From Candidatus Omnitrophica bacterium UBA6253 (GTDB lineage: Bacteria; Omnitrophota; Gorgyraeia; Gygaellales; Profunditerraquicolaceae), in NCBI GenBank assembly GCA_002441245.1, contig DJVP01000011.1, forward strand, positions 53,295 through 117,294: 64,000 nt of DNA. The letters run 5' to 3'. A program made the translations under genes and the position numbers. Below, piece by piece: positions 868 through 29,087 of this stretch; the first letter of the stretch is position 1; each line of letters starts with the position of its first letter. Below the pieces are notes generated by a model, which saw nothing but the letters and a program-made list of their open reading frames with translations, was not told the DNA's origin and did not search any database.

Positions 868-871
868 GATA

Positions 872-1447: not shown

Positions 1448-1453
1448 TATTGA

Positions 1454-3100: not shown

Positions 3101-3101
3101 A

Positions 3102-3686: not shown

Positions 3687-3689
3687 AAA

Positions 3690-4133: not shown

Positions 4134-4152
4134 AAAGGAAGCAGGTGGATTA

Positions 4153-4554
4153 ATGAGCGGAAAAGGTTTTGCTATGGTTGAGATTATTATTATTTTAATG
4201 ATTATTGTTTTATTGGCTGTAATAGCAGTGCCGTATTTAACAACTTCTGAAAAAGCCAGCGCAATAACAGCGAGAGAGGCCTTAAGCAAGCTTTCTGTTG
4301 CCGCAGAAAATTACGCAACATTCCATAGCGGCGCCTATCCTGCCAGTGTCATTGAACTTACTGAGTTTATTGCTTCAGCAGGCAGCTATTGCGCTAATGC
4401 AACCGGAGCAATTACAGTTTCCGGAGGGTATAGTTATTCATGCACATTGGGGCCAGGCGGGTATGTTTTTTCAGCCAGTCCGGTTATGGCAGACTCAAGC
4501 GGAAGCGGTGCTACCTATACTGTTACCACAGGTGGAGTGCTTACGCCATTATAG
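4153..4554 (+). CDS. Type IV pilin (candidate major pilin) with a Ser/Thr/Gly-rich C-terminal tail
   Basis: The start MSGKGFAMVEIIIILMIIVLLAVIAVPYL carries the G|FAMVEI prepilin motif. The ATG at 4153 is preceded by a GGA-rich RBS, and the track ORF starts upstream at 4096. The C-terminus reads ...ADSSGSGATYTVTTGGVLTPL. Confidence 0.6.
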   Translation: MSGKGFAMVEIIIILMIIVLLAVIAVPYLTTSEKASAITAREALSKLSVAAENYATFHSGAYPASVIELTEFIASAGSYCANATGAITVSGGYSYSCTLGPGGYVFSASPVMADSSGSGATYTVTTGGVLTPL

Positions 4555-4581
4555 AAAAATAGAAACACCCTCCTTTTTATA

Positions 4582-6549: not shown

Positions 6550-6631
6550 AAAGTATTGCTAAATAATATCTTTGTGTTAAAATCAAGAGTATAACTTTTA
6601 TCAATATCTTCATTCTTTTAATAATTTAAAT

Positions 6632-7045
6632 ATGCCCAACAACAAGGCCCGAAGTTTTGTTATGATCATGATCGCCGTAGGATTGAGCGCATTATTGCTG
6701 CGCACAATGATCCAGAGGTTTATTGTTTATAATGTTGAGCGTAATCAATCATTGGCGCTTGTCAATCTTAAGCTTTTTTATACAGCTTTAGAAAATTACG
6801 CCAAAGATAATAAAGGCGTGTATCCTGATAATATAAACCAGCTTACCAAAGGAAACCCGGTTTACCTGGAAAAAGATTATCTGGCTGTATCATCCGTGAG
6901 GGGTTATGAGTATGATTGCCAGCGGCTTGACTCAAGCGGCTATAACTGCTCGGCAGCTCCGGTAAACTGTAACCTTACCGGAAATAAAGTTTATACTATG
7001 TCTACCGGCGGCTTGATTATCGCCGAGGGTTGCGATAAGAAATAA
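6632..7045 (+). CDS. Hypothetical exported protein, Cys-rich C-terminus (possible pilin-like or pilus-associated)
   Basis: 137 aa. The N-terminus is hydrophobic (ARSFVMIMIAVGLSALLL) but lacks the Glu5 prepilin motif. The C-terminus has 5 Cys. It lies between the TPR protein and the secretin. Confidence 0.3.
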   Translation: MPNNKARSFVMIMIAVGLSALLLRTMIQRFIVYNVERNQSLALVNLKLFYTALENYAKDNKGVYPDNINQLTKGNPVYLEKDYLAVSSVRGYEYDCQRLDSSGYNCSAAPVNCNLTGNKVYTMSTGGLIIAEGCDKK

Positions 7046-8734
7046 ATGGTAAAAAGAGTGAAAAATATATTCTTAATTTGTGCTTTATTTTTCTGCTTGT
7101 TTGTTTGCGCCTTGGCCCAGCAGGATAATTTAGATGTTCCGGCTGAGCAAGGGAATGTTACTTTGGATTTCAAAGAGGCAGACATCTCTAATGTGCTTAA
7201 GATTATCTCCTATAAGTCAGGGGTCAATATAGTGACCACGCCTGATGTGGCGGGAAGTGTTTCAGTGCGCTTAAGTGATGTACCGTGGGAGATAGCCCTG
7301 GATGTTATCTTAAAGACTTACGGTTTTGGATACCAGAGGCAGGGCAATGTTATACTGGTTACCAGGGTAGATAATGTGGCTAAGATTGCCGCCGAGGAGC
7401 CTTTGCAGACGGAGATTATTACTTTGAAATTTCTGGACGCGCAGGACGCGCAGAAGATTATTATCCCTCTGCTTTCTCCGCGGGGAAAGATATCTGTTTT
7501 ATATACCCGCGGCCAGAAAGGCTGGCAGTTTGGAACTTTTAAGATTGGCAGGGATTCTGCCGGTTCCAGCGCAGCTTCTGTAAAAGATGGAGCTAATTCT
7601 ACCAGGTCGGAGACGGTTTCTTATGAGAAGGATGATAAAGGGCAGACAGTAATGAAGAAGGCAGAGTTTGACCCGTCAGTGAAATCCAAGATGCTGGTAA
7701 TTACCGATACCCCCAGCTCGCTTGATAAAATACGCAATATAATATTGCCCAAAATTGATATTAAACCCAAGCAGGTGCTTATTGAAACAAGGATTATAGA
7801 AGTCAATCGCAATAAACTAAGAGACCTGGGCATTGATTGGGGGCTAGGCGGGGCTGGTTCGGCAACAGATACCGCGATACAGATGCAGGGGTCCGGCACT
7901 GCTATAGGAGGACATTCCGGTACGATTAAGACTGCTGCTACAGCTACAAGCGCAGCTAAAACCGTAACTCCGTCTATTTTTAATCCGGCAACAACCGGGA
8001 TCTCAGGATATGAGCCATATAATGCCGGAGGTGAATTTGTATTCCAGAAGTTAACCGGAACTAAGTTTGAAGCGGTTATCCATGCCCTGGAGGATGATGC
8101 TAATACCAATACGTTGTCTGCGCCGAGCATCCTTACTCTTGACAACCAGGAGGCATCTATGTTAGTGGGGTATCATACCCCCATACTTCAATCTACAGTT
8201 ACCGCCGGCGATAACAGCGGCACCGGCACCGGAGCAACTATTACCCAGACACTGGATTATTACCAGGAGATAGGTATTCGTTTAAATGTTGTCCCGCAGA
8301 TAAGCGAAGAAGGCTACATAAATATGATTATCCATCCTAGCGTCACGTCTTCTAATTCCAGCGTTACGGCCACTTCTACTGCCAGCGGGGAGACAACAGA
8401 GACAGAGTATCCGATTATCGATGTGCGCGAAGCCCAGACCCAGGTCTTGCTTAAAGACCAGGAGACTATTGTAATCGGCGGCCTGCTTAAAGATGTTAAG
8501 GCCAAAGAATTTATAGGTATACCTTTCTTGAAAGACCTGCCCTGGATAGGAAAGTTTTTTGGCCGTGAAACAACAAGCACGCAGAAAATTGATCTTTTAA
8601 TATTTATAAAGGCCAGGATAATCAGGGAGGGGGAGTATACTCCTGAAGAGCTGACTAAACTGGAGACAAGATTAGAGCGTGGGCCGGTGATTATCAAGGG
8701 AAAAGAATTAGATAAGAAAGGCAGGAATAAATAG
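7046..8734 (+). CDS. pilQ: Type IV pilus secretin PilQ (GspD/PilQ family)
   Basis: 562 aa with a signal peptide (MVKRVKNIFLICALFFCLFVCALA). The C-terminal secretin motif is VIGGLLKDVKAKEFIGIPFLKDLPWIGKFFG. It also has a G/S/T-rich insert. Confidence 0.75.
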   Translation: MVKRVKNIFLICALFFCLFVCALAQQDNLDVPAEQGNVTLDFKEADISNVLKIISYKSGVNIVTTPDVAGSVSVRLSDVPWEIALDVILKTYGFGYQRQGNVILVTRVDNVAKIAAEEPLQTEIITLKFLDAQDAQKIIIPLLSPRGKISVLYTRGQKGWQFGTFKIGRDSAGSSAASVKDGANSTRSETVSYEKDDKGQTVMKKAEFDPSVKSKMLVITDTPSSLDKIRNIILPKIDIKPKQVLIETRIIEVNRNKLRDLGIDWGLGGAGSATDTAIQMQGSGTAIGGHSGTIKTAATATSAAKTVTPSIFNPATTGISGYEPYNAGGEFVFQKLTGTKFEAVIHALEDDANTNTLSAPSILTLDNQEASMLVGYHTPILQSTVTAGDNSGTGTGATITQTLDYYQEIGIRLNVVPQISEEGYINMIIHPSVTSSNSSVTATSTASGETTETEYPIIDVREAQTQVLLKDQETIVIGGLLKDVKAKEFIGIPFLKDLPWIGKFFGRETTSTQKIDLLIFIKARIIREGEYTPEELTKLETRLERGPVIIKGKELDKKGRNK

Positions 8735-8738
8735 GGGT

Positions 8739-9044
8739 ATGTATAAGGTCAATTTTATTTTTTCTAAAAAAGGACTGATGCGGTATATTTCGCATTTAGA
8801 CCTGATGCGCCTATTCATGCGCGCTATGCGCCGGGCAGAGCTGCCTTTGAAAATGACAGAAGGTTTCAGTCCGCATCCTAAGTTAAGTTTAAGAAGGGCA
8901 TTAAAGCTAGGATTGGAAAGCGAGCATGAGGAAGCTTCCATAGTTTTAAAATTCCCGGTTGAGCCGGAAGATTTTAAAAATAGGCTGCAAAAACAATTGC
9001 CAGAAGGGATACAAGTAAAAGATGTCCAAGGAAATTTTAATTAA
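8739..9044 (+). CDS. DUF2344-like 'radical SAM-linked protein' family member, short (possibly truncated)
   Basis: The YISHLDLMRLFMRAMRRAELPL...GFSPHPKLS motif resembles TIGR03936/DUF2344. It is only 101 aa and overlaps the RNase G start by 23 nt. Confidence 0.4.
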   Translation: MYKVNFIFSKKGLMRYISHLDLMRLFMRAMRRAELPLKMTEGFSPHPKLSLRRALKLGLESEHEEASIVLKFPVEPEDFKNRLQKQLPEGIQVKDVQGNFN

Positions 9045-12577: not shown

Positions 12578-13830
12578 AGAAAAACCTTAAAAAAGAAATA
12601 GAGGGTATCGCAAAAATGGCTTTAGCAGCTTCCCGCCTGCTGGCTAATTTAACTTCTGATGCCAAAAACGCGGTGCTTAAAGACATGGCTGCCGCTTTGT
12701 TGAGCAATAAGCAGGATATTTTGAAAGCAAACAGGAAGGATATCAGCTCCTCCCGCAGCAAGGGCAAGGCCTTTATCGACCGGCTTACCTTGGATGAGGC
12801 AAGGATCAGGCAGATGGCAGGCGCCTTGCTCGATGTTACCAGGCTTAAGGATCCGGTGGGCGAGCTTATGCGCGGCTGGAATACTGATAGCGGCTTGCGT
12901 ATCCAGAAGGTGCGTTCGCCTATCGGAGTTATCGCTATAATTTATGAATCCCGGCCTAATGTTACCGCGGATTGTGTCGGGCTTTGCCTTAAGTCAGGCA
13001 ACAGCGTAATTTTACGCGGCGGAAGCGAATCTTTGAATTCCAATCTTGCCATTTACAATGCGCTTAATTCGGCGATACAAAAACACGGTTTACCTTGCGG
13101 ATCAATCAGCCTGATTAAGACACCTGACCGCAAGGCAGTAGATATATTGTTAAAGTTAAATAATTATATTGATGTAGTTATCCCCCGCGGCGGAGAGGAG
13201 CTGATTAAGAAGGTAGTTAGTTCTTCGCGCATTCCTGTGATCAAGCATTATAAGGGGATTTGCCATGTTTATGTGGATGCCTGGGCGGATTTGAATATGG
13301 CGGAAAAGATTTGCTTTAACGCCAAGGTGCAGCGGCCGGGAGTTTGTAATGCAATGGAAAGCATGCTGGTGCATCGCGATGTAGCTATAAGATTTCTGCC
13401 GGGGATGCTTAAAAAGTTTAAAGAGGCTGGGGTTCAAATCCGCGGGTGCGCCTTTACCCGGAAGATCGCTAAGTGGGTGCAGCGCGCCACCGAAAAAGAC
13501 TACCGCACTGAATACCTGGATTTGATTCTTTCGGTCAAGGTAGTTGAGGATTTAGATGAGGCAATCGCCCATATAAATAATTATGGTTCGCACCATTCGG
13601 ATAGTATTGTTACGGATGATTATGACGAGGCCTTGAAATTTTTAAGGCAGGTGGATTCAGCCTGTGTTTACCTGAATGCCTCAACCCGTTTTACAGACGG
13701 AAATCAGTTTGGCATGGGCGCCGAGATCGGTATCTCAACAGATAAATTGCATGCCCGAGGGCCTATGGCACTAGAAGAGTTGACTACCTATAAATATATG
13801 GTTTTCGGCTCTGGCCAGGTGAGGCAATGA
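12574..13830 (+). CDS. proA: Gamma-glutamyl phosphate reductase
   Basis: 418 aa in the aldehyde dehydrogenase superfamily. It contains IYESRPNVT and CNAMESMLVH and follows proB with a 4-nt overlap. Confidence 0.9.
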   Translation: MKKNLKKEIEGIAKMALAASRLLANLTSDAKNAVLKDMAAALLSNKQDILKANRKDISSSRSKGKAFIDRLTLDEARIRQMAGALLDVTRLKDPVGELMRGWNTDSGLRIQKVRSPIGVIAIIYESRPNVTADCVGLCLKSGNSVILRGGSESLNSNLAIYNALNSAIQKHGLPCGSISLIKTPDRKAVDILLKLNNYIDVVIPRGGEELIKKVVSSSRIPVIKHYKGICHVYVDAWADLNMAEKICFNAKVQRPGVCNAMESMLVHRDVAIRFLPGMLKKFKEAGVQIRGCAFTRKIAKWVQRATEKDYRTEYLDLILSVKVVEDLDEAIAHINNYGSHHSDSIVTDDYDEALKFLRQVDSACVYLNASTRFTDGNQFGMGAEIGISTDKLHARGPMALEELTTYKYMVFGSGQVRQ

Positions 13831-14393
13831 AGATTGGCATCTTAGGCGGAACTTTTAATCCGGTGCACATCGGCCATTTGATTCTGGCAGAGGAGGCAAG
13901 AGAGAAATTAGGGCTGGATAAGATTATCTTTATTCCTACAGCCTTGCCGCCGCACAAGGATAATTTAAATATTGCTCCGGCGGATAAAAGGCTAAAAATG
14001 TTAAAGTTGGCCATAAGGGGCAACCGGCACTTTGCAGTTTCGGATATTGAAGTTAAACGCATGGGCCGTTCTTATACGATTGATACATTGAAAGAATTGA
14101 AGTGCAGATACAGCCGTGATGAGCTTTATTTTATTATTGGTTCTGACCTGCTTAAATATTTAAATGAGTGGAAGGATTTAAGCGAAATAACCAAGATGGT
14201 AAAATTTGTAGTTGCAACGCGGCCGGGTTACCCTCTTGAGCAGATACCGCATTACATGCAGACTTTAGCTATCCGAGCAGTAGATGTTTCAGGTTTTGAA
14301 GTGCGGCAGGCAGTGGCGAAGAATAAGTCATTCGGTTACCTGGTGACAGATAAGGTTTTTGACTATATCAAGAAAAGCAAGCTCTATAAGTAG
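13827..14393 (+). CDS. nadD: Nicotinate-nucleotide adenylyltransferase
   Basis: MKIGILGGTFNPVHIGHL carries the (H/T)xGH nucleotidyltransferase motif. The TAG stop at 14391-14393 lies inside the first repeat module. Confidence 0.85.
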   Translation: MKIGILGGTFNPVHIGHLILAEEAREKLGLDKIIFIPTALPPHKDNLNIAPADKRLKMLKLAIRGNRHFAVSDIEVKRMGRSYTIDTLKELKCRYSRDELYFIIGSDLLKYLNEWKDLSEITKMVKFVVATRPGYPLEQIPHYMQTLAIRAVDVSGFEVRQAVAKNKSFGYLVTDKVFDYIKKSKLYK

Positions 14394-14548
14394 ACAGTCT
14401 ATATAATTATTTGATAATAGATGAGTTATGAAACAAATACATGTAAGAGAGAGGAACATAATAAAATAAGAAGTTGTTTTAGTTATTTTGAATCAAAATA
14501 TTTGTTTTATAAATAATTGGTTTGCAAGATGTTACATACACTGTCTAC
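14390..14548. repeat. REPIN-like inverted doublet of the GTAGAC-W-GTCTAC module; it fills the whole nadD-rpe intergenic region.
   Basis: The left arm at 14390-14402 is GTAGACAGTCTAT. The right arm at 14537-14548 is TACACTGTCTAC. Both arms align over ~50 nt with the other module copies (AATATTTGTTTTRTAAC ... TTACGTAGACTGTCTAC). Confidence 0.6.
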
Positions 14549-14549
14549 T

Positions 14550-15197
14550 ATGATAAAGATAGCGCCATCAATATTATCGGCTGATTTTAGTAATCTTGCG
14601 CTTGAGCTTAAAAAGATTGAACGTGCGGGAGCGGATTTAGTCCATGTTGATATAATGGACGGGCATTTCGTGCCGAATATTACAATCGGTCCGGTAGTCG
14701 TAAAATATATACGCAGTTCGACCAGGCTTCCTCTGGATGTGCATTTGATGATTGAAAATCCTGCTAAATATATAGGCGCCTTTATCAACGCCGGAAGCGA
14801 TATGATTACTGTGCATATTGAGGTTGTAGCCTTAAAAGAATTGGCAGCTATTGCCAGGGTGTTAAAGAAAAACGGGATAAAACTGGGGATTTCGTTAAAT
14901 CCGGCAACCCCTTTATCCAGGATTAAGAAAGCCTTGCCGCTGGTCGATTTTGTTTTGGTGATGTCGGTTAACCCCGGATTCGGCGGACAGGCCTTTATTC
15001 CGTCAGCGTTAAATAAAATACGCCAGCTTCGCGCAATCTTTAAAAAAGATATCGCCGTAGACGGAGGGATTAATAATGTTACCGGCAAGCAGGTAAGGCA
15101 GGCAGGGGCAAATATCCTTGCCGCAGGTTCGTATATTTTTGGGGCAAAGAATACAAAAAAAGCAATTAACAGTTTAAGAAAGGACGAGACTCGATGA
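14550..15197 (+). CDS. rpe: Ribulose-phosphate 3-epimerase
   Basis: MIKIAPSILSADFSNL...VHVDIMDGHFVPN...GG. The likely true start ATG at 14550 sits 2 nt after the repeat. The track ORF starts at 14517, inside the repeat. Confidence 0.85.
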   Translation: MIKIAPSILSADFSNLALELKKIERAGADLVHVDIMDGHFVPNITIGPVVVKYIRSSTRLPLDVHLMIENPAKYIGAFINAGSDMITVHIEVVALKELAAIARVLKKNGIKLGISLNPATPLSRIKKALPLVDFVLVMSVNPGFGGQAFIPSALNKIRQLRAIFKKDIAVDGGINNVTGKQVRQAGANILAAGSYIFGAKNTKKAINSLRKDETR

Positions 15198-16585
15198 GCA
15201 ATGCAGTTTCACAAATCAAATTCGGCACCGACGGTTGGAGGGCGATTATCGCAGATACTTATACTTTGGAAAACGTAAGGATTTTGAGCCAGGCAGTGGC
15301 GGATTACCTGGGCAGCGGCAAGAAAGTTGGGATTGGATATGATACGCGTTTCATGTCCGCTAAATTTGCCGAGGCAGCTGCAATAGTATTAAAGAATAAC
15401 GGTATGGAGGTTGTCCTTTCTGACAGGCCCACGCCTACGCCGGCATTAAGTTTTGTTGTAAAGTCGCGTAAGCTGGACTTAGGGATTATGATTACCGCTT
15501 CGCATAACCCGGCAGAGTACAATGGTTTTAAAATTAAGAATTCCGCTGGCGGCGGAGCTAGCCAGGAGTTAACGCGGGAGGTTGAAGGTTTACTTGGCAA
15601 GAGCCCGGTAAAAGATGCAACTTTGCTTGAGCCGATTAAGGCCGTGGATATCACTAAGGATTATATAAAGTTTATCCGCAATTATGTTGATTTAAAGAAG
15701 ATCAAAAATAAAAAGTTTAAAGTCTTGGTTGATTCTATGTATGGCTCCGGAGACAGCTTCATTGCTCAGGTACTTAAGGGTACAAGCATAAAACTGGAGT
15801 TTATGCGCAATACGATCAATCCTTCTTTTGGCGGAGGCAGGCCTGAGCCGGTGGAAGAAAACCTGAAAGAATTAAAGGAACGAGTAAAAAAGGAGAAGTT
15901 TGATTTAGGTATTGCTTTAGACGGCGATGCCGACAGGATAGCCGCGGTTGCACCCGGTGGAGTATTTATCCACCCACAGAAGATATTAGGGTTGTTGGCT
16001 TTGCATCTAAACCAGGACAGGCATTGGAGCGGCGGCTTGGTCAAGACAATTTGCGGTACGACGATGATGGATAATATCGCAAAATTCCTGGGGATTAAAC
16101 TTTATGAAACTCCCGTAGGCTTCAAATACATCTCAAATCTCATGGAGACTGAAGATATCGTTGCCGGAGGAGAAGAAGCTGGCGGTATGGGTGTAAAGGG
16201 CTATATCCCTGAACGCGATGGGACTATGGCAGGGCTTTTGCTGATTGAAATGATGGTTTATCGCAACAAGAATATGCTGAAGATTTTAAACGAGGCTGAA
16301 AAATCGTTTGGTAAATATTATTATGTGCGTCAGGATTTGCATTTAACTAAACGTGTTGAGCCAAGAAAAGAAAGTTTGCCATCTGAATTATTAGGCAAAA
16401 AGGTTGTGGATGTCAAAGATTACGATGGCATAAAACTTATCTGTGAAGACCAGAGCTGGCTGATGTTCCGCAGCTCGGGGACTGAGCCGATTATGCGCAC
16501 CTACGCTGAGGCAAAGAGCCTCCTGCGGGCAAATAAGCTGCTTGCGTTGGGAAAGGAAATAATTTTGAAAGATGTACAGATTTAG
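15194..16585 (+). CDS. Phosphomannomutase/phosphoglucomutase (alpha-D-phosphohexomutase)
   Basis: The active-site loop ITASHNPAEYNGFK (phospho-Ser) and the GDGDADR metal-binding loop are both present. Confidence 0.85.
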   Translation: MSNAVSQIKFGTDGWRAIIADTYTLENVRILSQAVADYLGSGKKVGIGYDTRFMSAKFAEAAAIVLKNNGMEVVLSDRPTPTPALSFVVKSRKLDLGIMITASHNPAEYNGFKIKNSAGGGASQELTREVEGLLGKSPVKDATLLEPIKAVDITKDYIKFIRNYVDLKKIKNKKFKVLVDSMYGSGDSFIAQVLKGTSIKLEFMRNTINPSFGGGRPEPVEENLKELKERVKKEKFDLGIALDGDADRIAAVAPGGVFIHPQKILGLLALHLNQDRHWSGGLVKTICGTTMMDNIAKFLGIKLYETPVGFKYISNLMETEDIVAGGEEAGGMGVKGYIPERDGTMAGLLLIEMMVYRNKNMLKILNEAEKSFGKYYYVRQDLHLTKRVEPRKESLPSELLGKKVVDVKDYDGIKLICEDQSWLMFRSSGTEPIMRTYAEAKSLLRANKLLALGKEIILKDVQI

Positions 16586-18755: not shown

Positions 18756-19921
18756 TGGATATAAGTAAACAAATAGAGACAATTAAAAGGGGCGCTGCGG
18801 AGATAATCTCTGAGGGGGAGTTGTATAAGAAACTCGACCAGAGTATTAAAACCAAGCGCCCCTTAAAAATCAAGGCCGGTTTTGACCCTACTGCCCCGGA
18901 TCTGCATTTAGGTCATACCGTGCTTTTGAGGAAGCTGCGCCAGTTCCAGGATTTAGGGCATGAGGTTTATTTTCTGATCGGCGATTTTACCGGCCAAATC
19001 GGCGATCCCAGCGGTAGATCGGAAATCCGCAAGCAGCTTTCAAAATCAGAGGTTGTTAAGAACGCCCAGACCTATAAAAAGCAAGTGGCCAAGATCCTTG
19101 ATACCTCAAAACTAAGAATAGTTTTTAATAGTAAGTGGTTTGAAAAAATGTCGGTTGTAGAAATGCTAAAACTTACTACTTATTCTACGGTTTCCCAAAT
19201 GCTTGCCCGCGACGATTTTAAAAAGCGTTATGCAAAAGGAGAGAATATCTCTATCCTGGAATTTATTTATCCTTTGATGCAGGGGTATGATTCAGTTGTG
19301 CTTGAGGCTGATGTGGAACTTGGGGGGACTGACCAAATCTTTAATCTGCTGGTTGGCCGCGAATTACAAAAAGATTTTAACCAGGCTCAGCAGGTTGTGC
19401 TCACCATGCCGTTATTGGAAGGAACTGACGGCGTGCAGAAGATGAGTAAAACTTACGGCAACTATGTTGGCATCAATGAGCCGGCAAGCGATATATTCGG
19501 CAAGATTATGTCAATCTCCGACGAGTTGATGTTTAAATATTATGAGCTGCTTACTGATGAAGATTTAAATTCAGTTAGAAGAATGCATCCTAAAGAGGCC
19601 AAAGTAAATTTAGCCAAGATTATCATTACCCAGTATCACTCTGCAGAAGCGGCGGAAAAAGAAGCGCAGGAGTTTGCCCGAGTATTTTCCCAAAAAGAGA
19701 CGCCTGCGGATATGCCGGTTTTTAAAACTGACGGCGAGAAAACAATCCTGGTTATTCTTGCTGAAAGTAAACTGGTTGCCAGCGGCAATGAGGCGCGCAG
19801 GCTGATTAAACAGGGGGCAGTCAGTTTTAATAATCTAAAAATAGAAAAAGATGATTTTGTTCCGAATGAACCCGGCATCTTGAAAGCCGGCTCCCGCAGA
19901 TTCCTGAAGCTTATTTTGTAG
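18755..19921 (+). CDS. tyrS: Tyrosine--tRNA ligase
   Basis: Class I HIGH motif (PDLHLGH), KMSKT motif and a C-terminal S4-like domain. The TAG stop at 19919-19921 lies inside the GTAGAC of the repeat. Confidence 0.9.
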
Positions 19922-20764
19922 ACAGTCTACGTAACTATATATTCCCCAGCCATATCTGTAAGAAATATTTCTATTTTTAAAATAAACTTCGTTAGATTTA
20001 CCCATCTCCTACGTCAATTATGATAGAAGGAGGGGAAAATTATGCCATCGTATGCGCGCAAGCATCAGCTTCAACAGTCATTAGCGTATCATGCGTTTAA
20101 CCGAAGTAATGGACGAAAGGTAATTTTTCAAGAACCGGGGGATTTTGATCGTTTTAAGACTTTACTTTACGAGTATGGTTTTAAGTTTGATGCAAAAATA
20201 TACCATTGGGTGATTATGCCGAATCATTACCATCTTGTGGTCGAATTTAATTTACCTGAGTTAATTTCGAAATTTATGGCAGGATTGCATCGGGCATATA
20301 GCCATTATTATCATAATCAATATAACTCGGTAGGTTTTTTATGGCAAGGCAGGTTTAAATTACAGCCGATACAAAAAGATTTATACTTGAAAAATTGCGG
20401 CAGGTATGTGGAGAGGAATCCGGTGCGCGCGGGAATGGTCAAAGAGGCCTGTGAATATGCGCATAGTAGCGCGCGGTTTTATTGTTTAGGGCAGGAAGAT
20501 GGTGTAACGCAAGTCAGTTGCGATTTTGAAAATTTTGGAAAAGAAGCAACTGGGCGCAGGGCAGTTTATAAAGAATTCCTGAGGGCTTTTGATAGCGAGG
20601 AAGAGGCGTACTTCTCAAACATAGAAATTCCTTGTGGTGACCAAGATTTCCTGCGTAGGCTGGTAAAAGCGAAGGGGCATTATTACCCGAGAAGGCAAGG
20701 TAGGAAGGCTGCAATATTTGTTTTGTAAACGCATATATTTGATATGATTGCATAGACTGTCTAC
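19918..20764. mobile_element. REP-associated tyrosine transposase (RAYT) unit flanked by inverted copies of the GTAGAC-W-GTCTAC module
   Basis: The left end at 19918-19934 is GTAGACAGTCTACGTAA, an inverted module. The right end at 20752-20764 is ATAGACTGTCTAC, a direct module. Between them lies the IS200-like Y1 transposase gene. Confidence 0.7.
20042..20728 (+). CDS. IS200/IS605-like Y1 (HuH) transposase of the REP-associated (RAYT) type
   Basis: HuH motif MPNHYHLVVEF. C-terminal motif YVERNPVRAGMV with the catalytic-Tyr context typical of PF01797 and RAYTs. 228 aa. Confidence 0.8.
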   Translation: MPSYARKHQLQQSLAYHAFNRSNGRKVIFQEPGDFDRFKTLLYEYGFKFDAKIYHWVIMPNHYHLVVEFNLPELISKFMAGLHRAYSHYYHNQYNSVGFLWQGRFKLQPIQKDLYLKNCGRYVERNPVRAGMVKEACEYAHSSARFYCLGQEDGVTQVSCDFENFGKEATGRRAVYKEFLRAFDSEEEAYFSNIEIPCGDQDFLRRLVKAKGHYYPRRQGRKAAIFVL

Positions 20765-20771
20765 AGATTTG

Positions 20772-20788: not shown

Positions 20789-21064
20789 ATGCTTTGGCAT
20801 TTGATTGGCGCGATGGCCGCCACCTTAACCATGTTTTCTTTTATTCCGCAGATAGCCAGGTCTTTAAGGACTAAATCTGTAAAAGACGTCAGCCCGATTA
20901 CCTTATTCCAGCTTTCTGCCGGTGTTTTACTCTGGATGATCTATGGTATCGCGCGCAAGGATGTGATAATTATCGGCGCGAATCTGATAACTTTTATAAG
21001 CCTGGCAGTGCTTATTTTCTTGTATTTTAAATATAAAAAGGTGGATGTTTCTTTTAAGAAATAA
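20789..21064 (+). CDS. SemiSWEET (PQ-loop/MtN3 family) sugar transporter
   Basis: 91 aa with 3 TM helices and the PQ motif (FSFIPQIARSLRTKSVKDVS). It is close in sequence to characterised bacterial SemiSWEETs. Confidence 0.75.
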   Translation: MLWHLIGAMAATLTMFSFIPQIARSLRTKSVKDVSPITLFQLSAGVLLWMIYGIARKDVIIIGANLITFISLAVLIFLYFKYKKVDVSFKK

Positions 21065-21065
21065 C

Positions 21066-21114
21066 ATTTCTTTTATAAGTATCTATTGCATAACGAATTA
21101 CGTAGACTGTCTAC
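21066..21114 (+). repeat. Single direct-orientation repeat module ending in TTACGTAGACTGTCTAC at 21098-21114
   Basis: Aligns with the modules at 23811, 24970 and 28283 (..CATTTCTTTTATAAG..TAACGAATTACGTAGACTGTCTAC). It sits 27 nt upstream of the rmlA ATG. Confidence 0.6.
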
Positions 21115-21140
21115 AAGAGCTACAAGAGCAGGGGGGGTGA

Positions 21141-23807: not shown

Positions 23808-23864
23808 GCTGTAGTATTTCTTTTGTAACTATTTATCTATAATGGAATTACGTATACTGTCTAC
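23808..23864 (+). repeat. Single direct repeat module, ...TTTGTAAC..TATAAT..TTACGTATACTGTCTAC, ending 4 nt before the ATG of the next gene
   Basis: GTAGTATTTCTTTTGTAACTATTTATCTATAATGGAATTACGTATACTGTCTAC. The TATAAT box is at 23837-23842. Confidence 0.6.
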
Positions 23865-23867
23865 TAT

Positions 23868-24935
23868 ATGGCGATTGTCATAGTTACAGGTTCCTGCGGG
23901 TTAATCGGCTCTGAAACTGTGAGTTTTTTTGCGGAAAAAGGCTTTGATATCGTCGGTATCGATAATAATATGCGCAAAAGTTTTTTTGGCGCTGACGGTT
24001 CAATCCTTTGGAATAAAAAACGCCTGCAAAAATTATATAAAAACTACCGGCATTATTCTGTAGATATCCGTGACCAGGGCAAAATCAATTCAATATTCAA
24101 GAAGTATAATAAAGATATCGCTTTAATTGTGCATGCCGCGGCCCAGCCATCCCATGATTGGGCGGCAAGAGAGCCGGCAATTGACTTTGGGATTAATGCC
24201 CAGGGCACGCTGGTTATGCTCGAGGCCTTGCGTAAATTATCCCCCCGCTCAGTTTTTATTTTTGCCTCAACGAATAAAGTCTATGGCGATACCCCTAACC
24301 GGCTTCCCTTAATAGAAAAGGAAAAACGTTTCGAGATCTCATTTGACCACAAATATTTCAAAGGTATTGATGAAACAATGAGCATTGACAACTGCCTGCA
24401 TTCGGTTTTCGGCGCCTCAAAGGTTGCCGCGGATATTATGACACAGGAGTATGGAAAGTATTTCCATCTTAAAACCGGAGTGTTTAGAGGGGGATGCCTT
24501 ACCGGGCCGGCTCATTCCGGCGCTGAATTACATGGGTTTTTATCATATATGGTTAAATGCTGCGTGACAAAACGCAAATATAAAATTTACGGTTATAAAG
24601 GCAAACAGGTCAGGGATAATATACACTCTTTTGATATGGTAAGTGCTTTTTATCATTATTTCCAGAGTCCCCGTTGCGGAGAAGTTTATAATATAGGCGG
24701 AGGCAGATTTGCCAATCTCTCGGTTATGGAAGCAATCGAGATGTGCGAAAAACTAAGCGGCGAAAAGTTTGATTATGAATATATTGATACTAACCGCATC
24801 GGCGACCACATTTGGTGGATCAGCGATGTATCTAAGTTTAAGGCGCATTATCCTGATTGGCAGTATAAGTTCGGCATAGAAGAAACTCTTCGCCAGATTG
24901 TAGACAGTGTACGTAATTCTCTTAAATCTAAATAG
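23868..24935 (+). CDS. NAD-dependent epimerase/dehydratase family protein (CDP-paratose-2-epimerase-like extended SDR)
   Basis: [15 protein letters not shown]...[15 protein letters not shown]. The last 12 codons overlap an inverted repeat module (GTAGACAGTGTACGTAA at 24900-24916). Confidence 0.7.
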
Positions 24936-25026
24936 TTAGAAAACAAATTTTTATCTGAATTAAAATACAGGTATAGTATTTCTTATATAACCTCTTATTT
25001 TTGATATAATTACGTAGACTGTCTAC
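24900..25026. repeat. REPIN-like inverted doublet: an inverted module at 24900-24957 and a direct module at 24970-25026 with TGATATAAT at 25002-25010
   Basis: The outer dyads are GTAGACAGTGTAC at 24900-24912 and GTAGACTGTCTAC at 25014-25026. The inner boxes AAATTTGTTTTCTAAC and GTATTTCTTATATAACCTCTT are conserved. Confidence 0.6.
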
Positions 25027-25033
25027 AAATCAA

Positions 25034-25402
25034 ATGCGGAAGACGATATTGATAATAGAAGACGATCCCCTAAATATGAGGTTGAGCGTTGATTTGCTTG
25101 AATTAAACGGTTTTAATACTCTAAGTTGTGAAGATGGCTGCAGCGCTCTTGAAACCCTAAAGAATACTATCCCCGACCTTATTCTGCTTGATATAAACAT
25201 GCCGAAGATGAATGGTTTTGAAGTTTATAAGAAAATAAGAGAAGATGACCGGCTAGATCAGGTTAAGGTAATTGCCATGTCTGGATCGGTGATGAAAGAA
25301 GATGAGCGAAGGATAGTTGCTGCCGGTTTTAATGATTTTGTGCCCAAGCCCATTGATATAAAGGGATTAGTAGGCAAGCTAAAAGGTTATTTATCTGTAT
25401 GA
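25034..25402 (+). CDS. Response regulator, receiver domain only (CheY-like)
   Basis: 122 aa with acidic pocket IIEDD, phospho-Asp LLDINMPKMNG and the conserved K in PKPI. Confidence 0.8.
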   Translation: MRKTILIIEDDPLNMRLSVDLLELNGFNTLSCEDGCSALETLKNTIPDLILLDINMPKMNGFEVYKKIREDDRLDQVKVIAMSGSVMKEDERRIVAAGFNDFVPKPIDIKGLVGKLKGYLSV

Positions 25403-26523
25403 AGGAATGCATGGAAGTAGAATATCGCGAGCTTGTAGAAAATGCTAATAGCATTATCCTGCGCATGGATATGAAAGGCAACCTTACCTTTTTTAATAGA
25501 TACGCGCAGGAATTCTTCGGTTATAGCCAAGAGGAGATTTTGGGGAAAAGCGTGATTGGCACTATAGTTGCCCCTACCGATTCATCCGGACGGGACCTTA
25601 AGGCGATGATTGATGATATAGTTTCCCATCCATTACGTTATGTTGAAAATAAAAATGAGAATATGCTTCGTAACGGCGAGAGGGTGTGGATAGCCTGGAC
25701 TAATAAAGCCATACTTGATAAAGATGGCCGCGTAGGAGGGGTATTTAGTATCGGTAACAATATAACCAAACTTAAACAAGCCGAAGAGGAAATATTAAAG
25801 GCAAAAGAGGCTGCAGAAAGCGCCAATAAAACCAAAAGTGCATTTCTTGCCAATATGTCGCATGAGCTAAGGACGCCGCTTAATGCGATTATCGGGTTTT
25901 CTGAACTGGTAAAAGATGAAAGCGTTGGGGCCCTTAATGGGAAACAAAAAGAATATCTCAATTATGTTTGGGAAAGCGGCAAGCACCTGCTTTCATTGAT
26001 AAATGAGGTACTTGATTTGTCGAAAGTCGAAGCAGGAAAAATGGAGCTGGAGCTGACCGAATTTGACCTAAAAGAACTTTTAAAAAAGAGCCTTATGTTT
26101 ATATCGGAAAAAGCAATGAAGCAGGAGATCACGCTTTTGACCGATATTGAAGAAGGCGTGGGAATTATTAAAGCTGATGAGAGAAAAATAAAGCAAGTAG
26201 TTTTTAATTTGCTTTCTAACGCTATGAAATTTACTCCTAAGGGGGGTAAGGTTAGTATTCAGGCAAAGATTGCAGGAGAAAATGAAGTTTTAATTTGTGT
26301 GTGGGATACAGGTATTGGGGTAGAAGCCAAGGATAGCCAAAAAATATTTTCTGAATTTGAGCAAATATCCAGTGAATATTCGCGTCAATATGCCGGGACT
26401 GGTTTGGGCATGCCTTTGAGTAAAAAATTTATTGAGTTGCATGGCGGCAAGATGTGGTTTGAAAGCGAGGGAAAGAGTAAGGGTACATATTTTTATTTTA
26501 CATTACCGTCTAAGATAGGCTAA
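25399..26523 (+). CDS. Cytoplasmic PAS-domain sensor histidine kinase
   Basis: A PAS fold follows a coiled region. H-box MSHELRTPLNAI. An N-box and G1/G2 HATPase_c follow (NLLSNAMKFTPKGG, GTGLGMPL). No TM segment. Confidence 0.8.
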   Translation: MKECMEVEYRELVENANSIILRMDMKGNLTFFNRYAQEFFGYSQEEILGKSVIGTIVAPTDSSGRDLKAMIDDIVSHPLRYVENKNENMLRNGERVWIAWTNKAILDKDGRVGGVFSIGNNITKLKQAEEEILKAKEAAESANKTKSAFLANMSHELRTPLNAIIGFSELVKDESVGALNGKQKEYLNYVWESGKHLLSLINEVLDLSKVEAGKMELELTEFDLKELLKKSLMFISEKAMKQEITLLTDIEEGVGIIKADERKIKQVVFNLLSNAMKFTPKGGKVSIQAKIAGENEVLICVWDTGIGVEAKDSQKIFSEFEQISSEYSRQYAGTGLGMPLSKKFIELHGGKMWFESEGKSKGTYFYFTLPSKIG

Positions 26524-26537
26524 CGAAAGGAGCAGAT

Positions 26538-26906
26538 ATGGCGAAGATTTTAATTGTGGATGATGATGAGATAATGCTTAAGCTCTATTCTGAGTTTTTA
26601 TCAAAGGAGGGTTTTGAAGTCCTTACTGCCGGCAATGCGGATAAGGGGTTTGATTTAGCTGCTTCTTGCCTGCCTGACCTTATCCTTTTAGATGTTATGA
26701 TGCCCGGAGTTGATGGAGCAGAGGCGCATGAGCGCTTGTCTAAAGATGCAAGAACTAGCGGCATTAAATTGGTTTTTTTGACCTCCCTGGTAAAGGCGGA
26801 GGAAGTAGCGGCTAACGAAGGGAATATCGGCGGGTTGGATTATATATCAAAATCCACTCCCAAAGAAGAGTTCATTAAAAGAATTAAAGAAATTTTAAGA
26901 TCGTAG
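26538..26906 (+). CDS. Response regulator, receiver domain only
   Basis: ILIVDDDEIM, LLDVMMPGVDG, and a conserved S/T and K. The TAG stop at 26904-26906 lies inside the repeat GTAGAC. Confidence 0.75.
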   Translation: MAKILIVDDDEIMLKLYSEFLSKEGFEVLTAGNADKGFDLAASCLPDLILLDVMMPGVDGAEAHERLSKDARTSGIKLVFLTSLVKAEEVAANEGNIGGLDYISKSTPKEEFIKRIKEILRS

Positions 26907-26960
26907 ACAGTTTACGTAATTTCTTTAAAAGTAGCAGGTTACAAAACAAATATTTATAAA
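26903..26960 (-). repeat. Single inverted repeat module (GTAGACAGTTTACGTAA ... GTTACAAAACAAATATT) between the response-regulator stop and the epimerase start
   Basis: Its reverse complement aligns base-for-base with the module at 28283 (AATATTTGTTTTGTAACCT...AATTACGTAAACTGTCTAC). Confidence 0.6.
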
Positions 26961-26963
26961 AAT

Positions 26964-28001
26964 ATGAAATATAATAATCTCTTGGTTGTCGGCGGGGCAG
27001 GGTTCATCGGCAGCAACCTGGCGGTCTATTTTAAAAGCAAATACCCGATACTTAAGGTTTACGCATTGGATAATCTTGTCCGCAGGGGAAGCGAATTTAA
27101 TCTGCCGAGGCTTAAAGAAAACAACGTTAAGTTTATCCGCGGGGATGTCAGGCGGCCCAAAGACTTGGAATTGAAATTTGATATAGATTTGATATTGGAT
27201 TGTTCTGCTGAGTCGTCGGTGTTGGCAGGTTATGAAAATCCATCTTACGTTATTGATACAAACCTAAACGGCACTGTTAATTGCCTTGAGCTGTGCCGCA
27301 AGCGCAAGGCAGGGATGATTTTTCTTTCCACAAGCAGAGTTTATCCTTATAAAAAAATAAACGCAATCAGCCGCCGGGAATCAAAGAGCAGGTTTGAGTG
27401 GAAGCTTTTCTCCGGTATTGATACGGATTTTTCTCTAACCGGGCCAAAGACTTTGTATGGCGCAACTAAACTGGCTTCGGAATTTATCCTGCAGGAGTAT
27501 ATTGCCGCGTACGGGATTAAAGCGGTTGTTAATCGCTGTGGGGTGGTTGCCGGGCCATGGCAGTTTGGCAAGATTGACCAAGGAGTGTTTACTTACTGGA
27601 TGCTGGCTCATTATTTCAAAAGGCCGCTTAAATATATCGGTTTTGGCGGCCGGGGTAAACAGGTCCGTGACCTTTTGCACGTTGACGACCTTTGCCGTTT
27701 GATCGACCTGCAGGTAAGCGGTCTTTCTAGATTAAGCGGAAATACTTATAATGTCGGCGGCTCAAGAGAGATAAGCCTTTCTCTGTTGGAAGCTACCGCT
27801 TTTTGCCAACAGATTACCGGAAATAAGATTAATGTTGGGTGCGATTTGCGTGAGCGTCCGGGCGATATCGCTATATACCTTACAGATAATAAAAAAGTTA
27901 CCCGGCAGCTGAAATGGAAACCGCAGAAGCAGGTTTCGGAGATCCTGAATGATATCTTTAACTGGGTTAAGAGTAATGAGGCTAAGCTTCGAAAACTATA
28001 A
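26964..28001 (+). CDS. NAD-dependent epimerase/dehydratase family protein (extended SDR)
   Basis: LLVVGGAGFIGSNLAVYF...YGATKLASEFILQEY. Confidence 0.7.
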   Translation: MKYNNLLVVGGAGFIGSNLAVYFKSKYPILKVYALDNLVRRGSEFNLPRLKENNVKFIRGDVRRPKDLELKFDIDLILDCSAESSVLAGYENPSYVIDTNLNGTVNCLELCRKRKAGMIFLSTSRVYPYKKINAISRRESKSRFEWKLFSGIDTDFSLTGPKTLYGATKLASEFILQEYIAAYGIKAVVNRCGVVAGPWQFGKIDQGVFTYWMLAHYFKRPLKYIGFGGRGKQVRDLLHVDDLCRLIDLQVSGLSRLSGNTYNVGGSREISLSLLEATAFCQQITGNKINVGCDLRERPGDIAIYLTDNKKVTRQLKWKPQKQVSEILNDIFNWVKSNEAKLRKL

Positions 28002-28002
28002 T

Positions 28003-28060
28003 ATAGACAGTTTACGTAACTTTATGGAATTATAATAGTTGTAAAACAAATATTACCGAA
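28003..28060 (-). repeat. Inverted repeat module (ATAGACAGTTTACGTAAC ... GTAAAACAAATATT), the left arm of a 331-bp doublet
   Basis: Its reverse complement is AATATTTGTTTTACAACTATTATAATTCCATAAAGTTACGTAAACTGTCTAT. Confidence 0.55.
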
Positions 28061-28097
28061 TTGAGCGCGGTTAGCTTTCTATAATACAGGAGGTGGC

Positions 28098-28262
28098 ATG
28101 GGCGATGAGGGTGGGTTTCTGGTGGATATTGACGGAAAGATATCTCTTCGTTGTTACAAGATTGAGTTTGATTATGACGAATACCAGTATGTGGTTAATG
28201 GTACGGAAAGGCATGAGCTTCCTTCCTGTGTAAAAAAGATAAATATTAATGTAGAAGGGTAA
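28098..28262 (+). CDS. Small ORF (54 aa) enclosed by the two arms of the repeat doublet; hypothetical
   Basis: An AGGAGG RBS at 28088-28093 lies 4 nt before the ATG. The ORF reads MGDEGGFLVDIDGKISLRCYKIEFDYDEYQYVVNGTERHELPSCVKKININVEG. It is absent from the ORF track only because of the length cutoff. No family recognised. Confidence 0.3.
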   Translation: MGDEGGFLVDIDGKISLRCYKIEFDYDEYQYVVNGTERHELPSCVKKININVEG

Positions 28263-28282
28263 GGGGTTACATGTAAAGTTGA

Positions 28283-28333
28283 ATATTTGTTTTGTAACCT
28301 CTTGGCTTTTATGAAATTACGTAGACTGTCTAC
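28283..28333 (+). repeat. Direct repeat module (AATATTTGTTTTGTAACC...TTACGTAGACTGTCTAC at 28317-28333), the right arm of the doublet
   Basis: This is the best consensus copy. It ends 8 nt before the ATG of the 28341 gene. Confidence 0.6.
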
Positions 28334-28340
28334 TAAGTAA

Positions 28341-29087
28341 ATGATTAAATTAAAGGATACTTTTCGCAAACGTTTTATCGCCGCTGAATCTGATACCCTC
28401 GTTATTGAAACTATTCAAACAATCTCCAAAACCAAACGCCAGAAACTCCGCTTACTCAGACTCAAAGGCACCTGGCGCGCAAACGAATATAATGAGCTAG
28501 TCTTTCAAGCAGCAGTCCGAAGAGGTTCTCCTGAAAAATACACCTTTAAAGGTGCCTGGAAAATAAACAAAAACCAGCAGATTGAATATAACTGTGGCGA
28601 AGGCCCGGATGTGTTGACATTTAAGGGCTACTGGAATATATCTTCAGCTAATAAGCTTGTTTATATTATAGAGGGCAGCTCAACTTCGCGCTTTGAATTC
28701 AAGGTTCAGCTTGAATCGCCCACACTTTACCCTAAAAAAGGAGAGATCCGCTATCGTATCGGCATAGGCACTCGTAAAAGCCGCCTAAGCGGCCCAGGCC
28801 AGATAGTTATTCTTTACGGTGAATGGAAGTTTGGCCGCAATTTAGGGTTAACTTTTCAGATGGATTATGGCCAGGGGAGGATCAAGGAAATAGAATTCGG
28901 CGCGGCTGTTTCCTTTGGGCGTAACAAGGTAATCTTTGCTCTTAAAAATGAATTTGGCAAACCCTTAGGCATAACTCTTGCCATGACGCATAAATTCCTG
29001 AAAGCCATTGATGCCGAAGCATTTATAAGATTGAAATCCCGCCAAAATGAACAGTCAATAGAAACCGGAGTTGCCATCCCTTTTTAG
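28341..29087 (+). CDS. Hypothetical protein (predicted beta-rich, no recognisable family)
   Basis: 248-aa ORF with a clean start right after the repeat. It has repetitive K/G-rich alternating hydrophobic strands (FKGAWKINK, FKGYWNISS). Confidence 0.45.
   Translation: MIKLKDTFRKRFIAAESDTLVIETIQTISKTKRQKLRLLRLKGTWRANEYNELVFQAAVRRGSPEKYTFKGAWKINKNQQIEYNCGEGPDVLTFKGYWNISSANKLVYIIEGSSTSRFEFKVQLESPTLYPKKGEIRYRIGIGTRKSRLSGPGQIVILYGEWKFGRNLGLTFQMDYGQGRIKEIEFGAAVSFGRNKVIFALKNEFGKPLGITLAMTHKFLKAIDAEAFIRLKSRQNEQSIETGVAIPF

Follow-up and report, generated by a model that had tools for sequence, protein, structure and literature searches.

A conserved receiver-kinase-receiver operon as a probable passenger in a REP/RAYT-punctuated glycan locus of an Omnitrophota bacterium

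The 64,000-nt stretch of Candidatus Omnitrophica bacterium UBA6253 analysed here (the window) carries a trio of signalling genes at 25034-26906: a stand-alone response regulator (RR1), a histidine kinase (HK) and a second stand-alone response regulator (RR2). The trio is embedded in a glycan locus, and an earlier note on this DNA had proposed that it may control that locus. We favour another explanation, to which we give a probability of about 0.6. The trio is a canonical, self-contained two-component operon that moved into a variable segment of the locus, one punctuated by repeats of the repetitive extragenic palindromic (REP) type and by a putative REP-associated tyrosine transposase (RAYT), and it resides there as a passenger. 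The signalling unit is ordinary, of the well-known kind in which a HisKA kinase works with single-domain receivers; the hotspot that holds it is the unusual part.

All three open reading frames are intact, and the domain content that the note had read from the letters is borne out by Pfam. HK (25399-26523, + strand) is a soluble class-I histidine kinase with PAS (1.2e-11, residues 8-120), HisKA (7.5e-22, residues 146-213; 77.6 bits) and HATPase_c (1e-27, residues 260-372; 97.2 bits) domains, the last two above their gathering scores. It has no transmembrane segment; the 19-residue Kyte-Doolittle mean peaks at 0.78. In the AlphaFold model (mean pLDDT 82.6) the PAS domain (residues 8-124) is joined by one long helix (residues 123-172) to the dimerization and histidine phosphotransfer (DHp) domain, which is followed by the catalytic and ATP-binding (CA) domain. 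A Foldseek search with this model matched WalK, the YF1 LOV-FixL chimera, VicK, ThkA and GacS; it gave the PAS-DHp-CA architecture but no clue to the PAS ligand, and the LOV cysteine motif is absent from the HK sequence. Residues H155 (codon 25861-25863), N270/N274, D303-G305-G307, F317/F320 and G333-G335-G337 are invariant in 43 orthologs. With its H-box histidine and its N, G1, F and G2 boxes, the protein is a predicted kinase of the HisKA class.

RR1 (25034-25402, + strand) and RR2 (26538-26906, + strand) consist of a receiver and nothing else. Response_reg covers residues 5-116 of 122 in RR1 (1.1e-27) and 4-117 of 122 in RR2 (7.3e-21). Because the receiver domain fills each 122-residue protein, neither has an output domain; Pfam matched none, and there is no room for one. 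Both have the acidic pocket, phospho-acceptor aspartate, threonine or serine, and lysine of single-domain CheY-like receivers: D10/D11, D53 (the phospho-acceptor, codon 25190-25192), S83, F102 and K105-P106 in RR1, and D8-D10, D52 (the phospho-acceptor), T82, Y102 and K105 in RR2. RR2 departs from the near-universal receiver Lys-Pro in that K105 is followed by Ser-Thr-Pro (window 26838-26861, residues 101-108). Two residues thus separate the conserved lysine from the proline, and the GGLxYISKSTP loop is invariant in all RR2 orthologs. The genes are closely packed: the RR1 stop and the HK start overlap as ATGA, and RR2 begins 14 nt after HK with a GGAG Shine-Dalgarno sequence ahead of it.

RR1 is closest to DivK. 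Its best PDB match is DivK 1m5t (9.3e-26; 93 bits vs 69 for the next), with an identity of about one half, estimated by eye, over the aligned residues 3-117, and JGI calls it DivK. In NCBIfam, RR1 is also like the receivers of the hybrid kinases TorS, RcsC and BarA, and the HK core is like these same hybrid kinases and the DivJ and PdhS models. RR2 resembles in sequence the receivers of the OmpR family and of PleD: its best PDB matches are the receivers of RpaA, PhoP and PleD, and Spo0F is also among the matches. The trio proteins do not reach curated membership of DivK, DivJ or EpsW. Scores are far below the cutoffs for DivJ (HK, 193 vs 1000) and for NF045717 DVU0259_DivK (RR1, 71 vs 160), and the match of RR1 to EpsW is weak (51.7 bits vs a cutoff of 200). 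There are also no DivL, CckA or CtrA genes nearby, and we regard RR1 as DivK-like only.

These features suggest how the unit could work. The cytoplasmic PAS domain would sense some intracellular cue, and the signal would pass from PAS through the continuous helix to the DHp domain. HK would autophosphorylate on H155 and transfer the phosphoryl group to D53 of RR1 and to D52 of RR2, in a branched pathway. Because the two regulators have no output domains, they would have to act by protein-protein contacts. RR1 is the candidate for the intimate partner of HK, as a feedback element or phosphate sink, because both RR1 and the HK core resemble the hybrid kinases TorS, RcsC and BarA; the translational coupling of the two genes is consistent with this. 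The phosphate-sink role is only a model. RR2 would be the better output candidate, acting on a partner protein.

The proposed pathway has several known relatives. In the DivJ/PleC-DivK(-PleD) system of Caulobacter crescentus one HisKA kinase serves two receivers, and each trio protein has its likeness there: RR1 to DivK, the HK core to DivJ and the PdhS models, and RR2 to the PleD receiver. However, HK is a small soluble PAS protein rather than a membrane-bound one, RR2 lacks a GGDEF domain, the DivL/CckA/ChpT/CtrA context is missing around the trio, and the phylum is another. Like ThkA-TrrA (TM1359/TM1360 of Thermotoga maritima) and HK853-RR468, the trio encodes a stand-alone receiver beside a cytoplasmic kinase of PAS-DHp-CA type. 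ThkA (3a0r) aligns with HK residues 11-371 (2.9e-30), and TrrA and RR468 match RR2 and RR1, but those systems have one receiver and the trio has two, one on each side of HK. CheA-CheY1/CheY2 of Sinorhizobium likewise joins one kinase to two single-domain receivers, and KinA-Spo0F joins a soluble PAS kinase to a receiver-only protein. Unlike them, the trio has no CheA-type kinase and no Hpt- or Spo0B-like gene beside it, either here or in what we take below to be its home locus. Indeed, searches at E values up to 0.1 gave no histidine phosphotransfer (Hpt) match in the trio, in its window neighbours or in the 440-477-aa proteins of that home locus, so the Hpt or Spo0B-type protein that would mark a multistep phosphorelay or a split hybrid kinase is missing from what was searched.

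The trio is conserved as a unit. We located orthologous loci by aligning the PAS domain alone against metagenome contigs (L-numbers below denote the compared loci or contigs). Scanning genome contigs with an alignment of full-length HK brought up so many generic HisKA paralogs (best 57% identity, no Omnitrophota) that no orthologous loci emerged. HK orthologs fall into about 64 clusters of proteins of about 374 aa, 64-85% identical, nearly all of them from named Omnitrophota. The order RR1-HK-RR2 is kept in 16 of 16 metagenome or contig loci with an HK at least 73% identical (RR1 67-89% and RR2 58-80% identical in these loci), and also in L166-L168. All phospho-acceptor residues are kept in the aligned regulator orthologs. 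In more distant relatives (HK 67-71%) the gene order is changed, and some of these carry a membrane anchor at the N terminus. PAS domains of this subtype, with the motifs NENENMLR and RVWIAWTNK, are also found fused to GAF-containing and longer multi-PAS kinases (L100-L165; P0043, P0054, P0056, P0064, P0071-P0078), and some of the 64-70% orthologs have an N-terminal transmembrane anchor ahead of the PAS domain.

The neighbourhood of the trio, by contrast, is variable. Neighbours of the rml or epimerase kind occur only in L003/L087; of 10 HK lineages whose flanks could be read, about 8 lack any such gene within 8-10 kb and about 2 have rml neighbours. L166 (HK 85% identical), L168 (80%) and L004 (79%) share another context, in which a DUF3313 gene lies on one side of the trio and an OEP/MFP/ABC exporter on the other. 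Between trio and exporter stands a third stand-alone receiver, preceded (in L166 and L168 only) by a 440-477-aa uncharacterised protein and a DUF748/AsmA-like protein. None of these DUF3313-context genes is present in the window. In L167 an RR-GGDEF-HD-GYP gene follows the trio, and in the clade with 75% identical HK (L005, L093-096) GT4, GH130, AhpC-like and malic enzyme genes lie beside it. L167 also has a weaker Y1_Tnp-like open reading frame of 170 aa (15853-16365) about 9 kb downstream of the trio, with no 54-nt repeat modules nearby.

In the window the trio lies between two genes for short-chain dehydrogenase/reductase (SDR) epimerases, all on the + strand. The left neighbour encodes an epimerase/dehydratase of 355 aa (23868-24935, + strand; Pfam Epimerase 1.9e-34) and the right neighbour one of 345 aa (26964-28001, + strand; Pfam Epimerase 1.6e-38), which some sources name CDP-paratose 2-epimerase. 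Family scans of the window proteins place RmlA, RmlD and RmlB genes upstream of the trio; downstream lie genes for GDP-mannose dehydratase, Wzm/Wzt, B12-radical-SAM enzymes and glycosyltransferases.

Both borders of the trio are occupied by repeats, as the note had claimed. The core GTAGACAGTNTACGTAATT occurs 11 times in the window at up to 3 mismatches (0.05 expected), always within 14.39-28.33 kb. The full unit is a 54-nt bipartite module with the consensus AaTATTTcTTTTgTAActa.tTAtcTTt.ATagAATTACgTA.ACTGTCTAc, one end of which is a GTAG-tagged 6-bp palindrome, GTAGAC-N-GTCTAC. We call a copy F when its GTCTAC end points towards the next + strand gene, and R when it is reversed. On the left is a REPIN-like doublet, R then F (24898-25029; nhmmer 2.6e-10 and 2e-12), recognised as an inverted repeat and by its RNA fold. 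Its R module (24898-24948) holds the final 12 codons of the upstream epimerase gene; a comparison of C termini agrees that the tail of that epimerase is encoded by the repeat. Between the end of the F module (24975-25029) and the RR1 ATG lie 4 nt. For the doublet as a whole (24896-25030) the predicted fold is a long hairpin at -35.9 kcal/mol with z = -5.8, whereas a single module folds unremarkably. On the right, an R module (26901-26954; nhmmer 1.5e-11) fills the gap between RR2 and the 345-aa epimerase gene, and its GTAG gives RR2 its TAG stop.

Further modules lie on either side. One F copy is upstream of rmlA (21064-21116; nhmmer 1.6e-10) and another ends 1 nt before the start of the 355-aa epimerase gene (23813-23866; nhmmer 1.1e-12). 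Beyond the right neighbour, an R module (28002-28053) and then an F module (28282-28336) were found by repeat search and module profile (28002-28336). The outermost doublet, a weak R (14390-14440) and an F (14497-14550), lies between nadD-like and rpe genes (14390-14550). The profile search found 33 modules in total, all in four RAYT-bearing loci (the window, L169, L170 and L171). It found none in about 160 other loci, L004 and L087 included, and none in about 67 kb of other DNA of the same genomes (the other 50 kb of the window, and L004, which is on the same contig as L169). In the window and the loci read, all copies cluster within about 14 kb around the RAYT gene. The modules are strand-biased (24 F to 9 R), and every R copy overlaps or abuts the stop codon upstream of it.

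Two side observations concern repeats in the sister loci. In L169 an insert of about 0.9 kb with two small open reading frames is framed by two 100% identical copies of the first 37 nt of a module (15049-15085 and 15994-16030). Given the usual difference of 17-35% between modules, such identity suggests that a recombination or insertion took place recently inside a module. L170 has a second, unrelated GTAG-tagged perfect palindrome, GTAGGGGAGGTTTAAACCTCCCCTAC, in two copies that are 100% identical: one (2730-2758) just after the S1 gene, the other (6871-6899) within the 5' part of the called rmlB open reading frame (6786-7805). That genome may therefore have a further REP family.

The modules come with a transposase. 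A REPtron-like unit (19916-20766, + strand) consists of an R module (19916-19967) that gives the TyrRS gene its TAG stop, a Y1, RAYT-like transposase gene (20042-20728), and an F module (20713-20766) that overlaps the 3' end of that gene. The product matches Pfam Y1_Tnp with 57 bits (cutoff 23), and NCBIfam REP_Tyr_transpos with 60.2 bits, below the cutoff of 80 but well over the 20.5 bits scored against IS200. Its only PDB match is E. coli TnpA_REP (4er8), with the HUH (HYH) motif and the tyrosine region aligned. RAYT-like genes of 227-228 aa, 79-84% identical to that of the window, stand at the same place in L169, L170 and L171. Their units (L169 2097-2942; L170 about 3960-4807; L171 3647-4495) lie between tyrS and the SemiSWEET gene or rmlA. 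In all four loci the gene is flanked by inverted modules, and it looks vertically inherited, as described for RAYTs; L087 has no RAYT gene.

By its sequence features, this combination of repeats and transposase matches a GTAG REP/RAYT system (REPtrons; PMC3333891, PMC8266576, PMC3116915, PMC3733652). The likeness includes the GTAG palindrome GTAGAC-A-GTCTAC, the inverted copies around a Y1 HUH gene, the doublets that form long hairpins, and a single transposase that is syntenic in four genomes. The GTAG end supplies TAG stops, and GTAG REPs are known often to donate a TAG stop to flanking open reading frames (PMC3733652; PMC8266576). As far as the searched literature shows, such a system is new for Omnitrophota. 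Unlike the described systems, the unit here is a 54-nt bipartite module, the 33 copies were seen only around the RAYT locus, and they are strand-biased and delimit slots of variable cargo. Modules that are locally clustered, strand-biased and border slots with genome-specific cargo are what sets this locus apart. The layout also recalls integron cassette arrays and defence islands: the genes are co-oriented, a repeated structured site lies between them, a recombinase-type gene is adjacent, and slot content is genome-dependent and rich in defence genes. However, the locus is not an integron. It has a Y1 HUH enzyme instead of an IntI tyrosine recombinase, it has no attC or attI (core sites of the attC kind are absent from the repeats), cargo alternates with core genes of housekeeping type (rml, epimerases), and there is no sign of site-specific excision.

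Comparison of syntenic loci shows what the slots hold. We compared five TyrRS-rml-epimerase loci: the window, L087, and three (L169, L170, L171) found by a search with the 345-aa epimerase. The SDR epimerase genes are called Epi352/Epi355 and Epi345 after their length in amino acids. In L169, L170 and L171 the order is S1, TyrRS, RAYT, SemiSWEET (called in L170 and L171, not in L169), RmlA, RmlD, RmlB, Epi352, slot A, Epi345, slot B, orf54 (where present), slot C and orf248. In the window, orf54 (28098-28262) lies between the R module at 28002-28053 and the F module at 28282-28336, and orf248 (28341-29087) starts 4 nt after the latter. Neither has a family match in Pfam or NCBIfam, and orf248 has none in PADLOC. 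Both serve as conserved locus anchors: identities are 70-87% for orf248 in all four other syntenic loci and 55-76% for orf54 in L087, L169 and L171; in L170, orf54 had no match.

The trio is present in two of the five loci, and in different slots. It occupies slot A of the window, where slots B and C are empty, and slot B of L087, where slots A and C are empty. L169, L170 and L171 lack it, despite having RAYT and modules. In L169, slot A holds ORF6N/PDC-S05 genes interrupted by an insertion, slot B a PDC-S23 Fic/RhuM system, and slot C a PLD (DrmC-like) gene, ORF6N, AbiEi/AbiEii and more. Slot A of L170 is empty, and its slots B and C, which are inseparable in a locus without orf54, hold PDC-S01 AAA_14/DUF4143. 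L171 has an ORF6N remnant in slot A, ORF6N with Peptidase_C1 in slot B, and an AbiEi/AbiEii-like pair in slot C (the PADLOC assignments cover the cargo of L169 and L170). Moreover, L169 and L004 are parts of one 606-kb contig, and the trio of that genome lies 150 kb from the rml locus, in the DUF3313 context.

In the sister genomes the slots form a small defence island (L169 7100-16040; L170 10040-11340; L171 8580-13450) with AbiEi/AbiEii, PDC-S23, PDC-S01, PDC-S05/ORF6N, a PLD nuclease-like protein and a papain-like peptidase. In L169 a 1.1-kb insertion interrupts an ORF6N/PDC-S05 gene (7230-8870), of which an intact paralog lies at 12988-13512. The insertion is bounded by 44-nt inverted repeats (7440-7483 and 8539-8582) and contains an open reading frame of 333 aa without known family.

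The comparison with L087 places modules at the borders of rearrangement. By blastn, L087 is collinear with the window except that Epi345 and the trio are swapped, Epi345 lying upstream of the trio in L087, and that the RAYT unit is missing from L087. All three breakpoints of the swap are modules in the window. The trio has diverged from that of L087 (RR1 80%, HK 82%, RR2 80% identity) as much as the flanking genes have (77-87%), and its GC content is unremarkable. It follows that the event is not a recent one and that purifying selection acts on the genes.

In the window, the 5' end of the operon has been altered. RR1 orthologs all start with MPEDKNNK-TIL or similar, whereas the window RR1 starts with M-RKTIL, 5 residues shorter, and an in-frame stop lies upstream of it at 25007-25009. 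Alignment of orthologs shows that the native leader and the first five RR1 codons have been replaced by the F module. The native leader is recognised by a shared ...TTGAAT-ATG, with a longer match between L003 and L168; L003 keeps about 35-40 nt that resemble the L168 leader. The operon has therefore been re-wired at its 5' end in this genome. Because the move would have cost the operon its native leader, it would have to be expressed here either by read-through from the epimerase gene or from sequence inside the module. The F copy before RR1 holds TGATATAAT, an extended -10-like string, and a module-borne promoter for the trio is a weak possibility. As a general property of F modules we rejected a portable extended -10 promoter, since TGnTAnnnT occurs in 5 of 33 modules against 1.75 expected. 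A scan for promoters and terminators was uninformative: it counted 38 promoter-like sites where 26 +/- 6 were expected, and it placed no terminator close to the trio. A further motif, TT[CT]GTTAGATTT-N12-15-CGTC[AT]ATT, lies ahead of the RAYT gene and of several cargo genes (ORF6N, Fic), at about 19995-20030 in the window and at 2169, 7193, 10126 and 12937 in L169. In L003 and L168, TTTTGTTAGT is also found in the leader native to the trio. The GTTAGATTT/TTTTGTTAGT motif may be a shared promoter or operator.

We propose that the operon left its usual neighbourhood (DUF3313, the AsmA-like protein, the third receiver and the OEP-ABC exporter) for one of the three variable slots of the rml locus. 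The earlier suggestion that the trio was delivered or re-wired by the repeat element survives in part. The re-wiring is visible in the module that replaced the RR1 leader and five codons. The slots hold other cargo in three of the four other syntenic loci, and the genome of L004 and L169 has its trio far from its rml locus; both agree with delivery. A causal role of RAYT in that delivery would be conjecture.

Several points weigh against a relocated passenger. L087 has the trio in this locus within compact intergenic regions and has neither module nor RAYT, so the trio can reside there without the element. Neither a target duplication nor a clean transposition footprint was found at the trio, and the modules that flank it are only 65-83% identical to each other. 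A search for the home locus with the DUF748 protein gave no match assignable to the 397-kb contig of the window, which does not separate relocation from duplication. Neighbour-joining trees of HK and the flanking genes are nearly star-like with mosaic signals; they show neither the direction nor the number of relocations and were not used to polarise events. On the signalling side, phosphotransfer to both regulators is argued from the conservation of the operon. Finally, with GT4 and GH130 genes beside the trio in some lineages, a loose link to the envelope may exist.

A first alternative, possible though unlikely, makes the trio a vertical resident. It would be ancestral in the rml locus and would have been lost or moved out in several lineages, and REP modules would later have invaded gaps around RAYT; the position of modules at the trio borders would therefore say nothing about how the trio arrived. 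The module-free trio of L087 fits this well, as do the age and divergence of the modules, the divergence of the trio at its neighbours' rate, and the F modules that fill gaps beside core genes too (rmlA, epimerases, orf248). However, it needs at least three independent losses or exits and also a re-creation of the DUF3313/OEP context of L166, L168 and L004, which fall on both sides of the HK tree. The difference in slot between the window and L087, and slots that are demonstrably variable for unrelated cargo, also argue against it.

More speculative, and in our view doubtful, is a reading in which the TyrRS-RAYT-rml segment is a gene-capture platform. A domesticated RAYT would use its locally clustered, strand-biased modules as recombination sites for inserting, exchanging or shuffling whole genes or operons between slots, such as defence systems, as a functional analogue of an integron built on single-strand HUH chemistry. 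The trio would be a core cellular operon captured in this way, possibly twice and independently (slot A in the window, slot B in L087). We hold it at this low level because no footprint of excision or insertion was seen, and because L087 has the trio without the element.

A dedicated glycan regulator is improbable. In that explanation the phosphorylated regulators would bind enzymes of the locus or the Wzm/Wzt exporter and so tune sugar-nucleotide or O-glycan synthesis post-translationally. The idea draws on the co-directional placement of the trio among rml, epimerase, GDP-mannose dehydratase and Wzm/Wzt genes, on its presence in the same locus in L003/L087, and on the GT4 and GH130 neighbours of the 75% clade. 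It also has a precedent for control of a glycan pathway by a single-domain regulator through protein contact: in Myxococcus xanthus, phosphorylated EpsW, encoded in a polysaccharide context, activates the phosphoglycosyl transferase EpsZ (PMC12802240), and RR1 has its weak match to EpsW. But that match is below the cutoff, and no phosphoglycosyl transferase partner of the EpsZ type (monoPGT) was identified beside the trio. The linkage to glycan genes, moreover, is not conserved. Three of the four other syntenic rml loci lack the trio, the two carriers among the five use different slots, most trio orthologs lie far from rml or epimerase genes, and the slots otherwise carry defence genes and no regulators. 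The earlier proposal that the trio controls the locus, which was to fall if orthologous loci lacked the trio, fails on this evidence, and a locus-specific regulator of EpsW type would be hard to reconcile with a linkage that is not conserved.

Mis-joining of the trio to the glycan genes across repeats can be dismissed: the source is a metagenome-assembled genome and both borders are repeats, but contigs from two independent assemblies (SRR13427965, 13.6 kb; SRR13427969, 3.6 kb) are 100% identical to the window across both junctions, the bordering modules (74-76% identical) are too diverged for collapse, and coding frames run cleanly into them. A variant 3' of RR2 in L002, a minus-strand gene call in a contig otherwise 100% identical to the window, proved to be an end-of-contig artefact.

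In Omnitrophota, on whose biology there is hardly any experimental work, a compact operon of regulator, PAS kinase and regulator is unusually well conserved (kinase identity 64-85%). The points where gene order changes, and the edges of the slots in which sister genomes carry defence genes, coincide exactly with REP modules and RAYT. If that link is causal, REP/RAYT would organise a local variable region beyond copying itself, and could rewire the expression of a whole operon. For annotation, embedding in a biosynthetic locus is weak evidence that a regulator controls that locus.

Other parts of the window have features of their own. A SemiSWEET sugar transporter gene (91 aa, 20789-21064; NCBIfam SemiSWEET_2 79 bits vs a cutoff of 80) lies between the RAYT unit and rmlA and is conserved in L087, L170 and L171. 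The left end (448-8734) carries a type IV pilus-like cluster with two prepilin-type N-methylation proteins, a PilM-like protein, a TPR protein and a secretin, followed by the housekeeping genes for RNase G, L21, Obg, proB/proA and nadD. Just past the Wzm/Wzt genes begins a low-GC stretch (32000-53000; 0.28-0.38 vs about 0.41 elsewhere), typical of a horizontally exchanged O-glycan region. Its scanned part (32.4-41.2 kb) encodes two B12-binding radical SAM enzymes, glycosyltransferases and a hexapeptide-repeat transferase, and the alignment of L087 with the window resumes only beyond this stretch, at about 57.5 kb.

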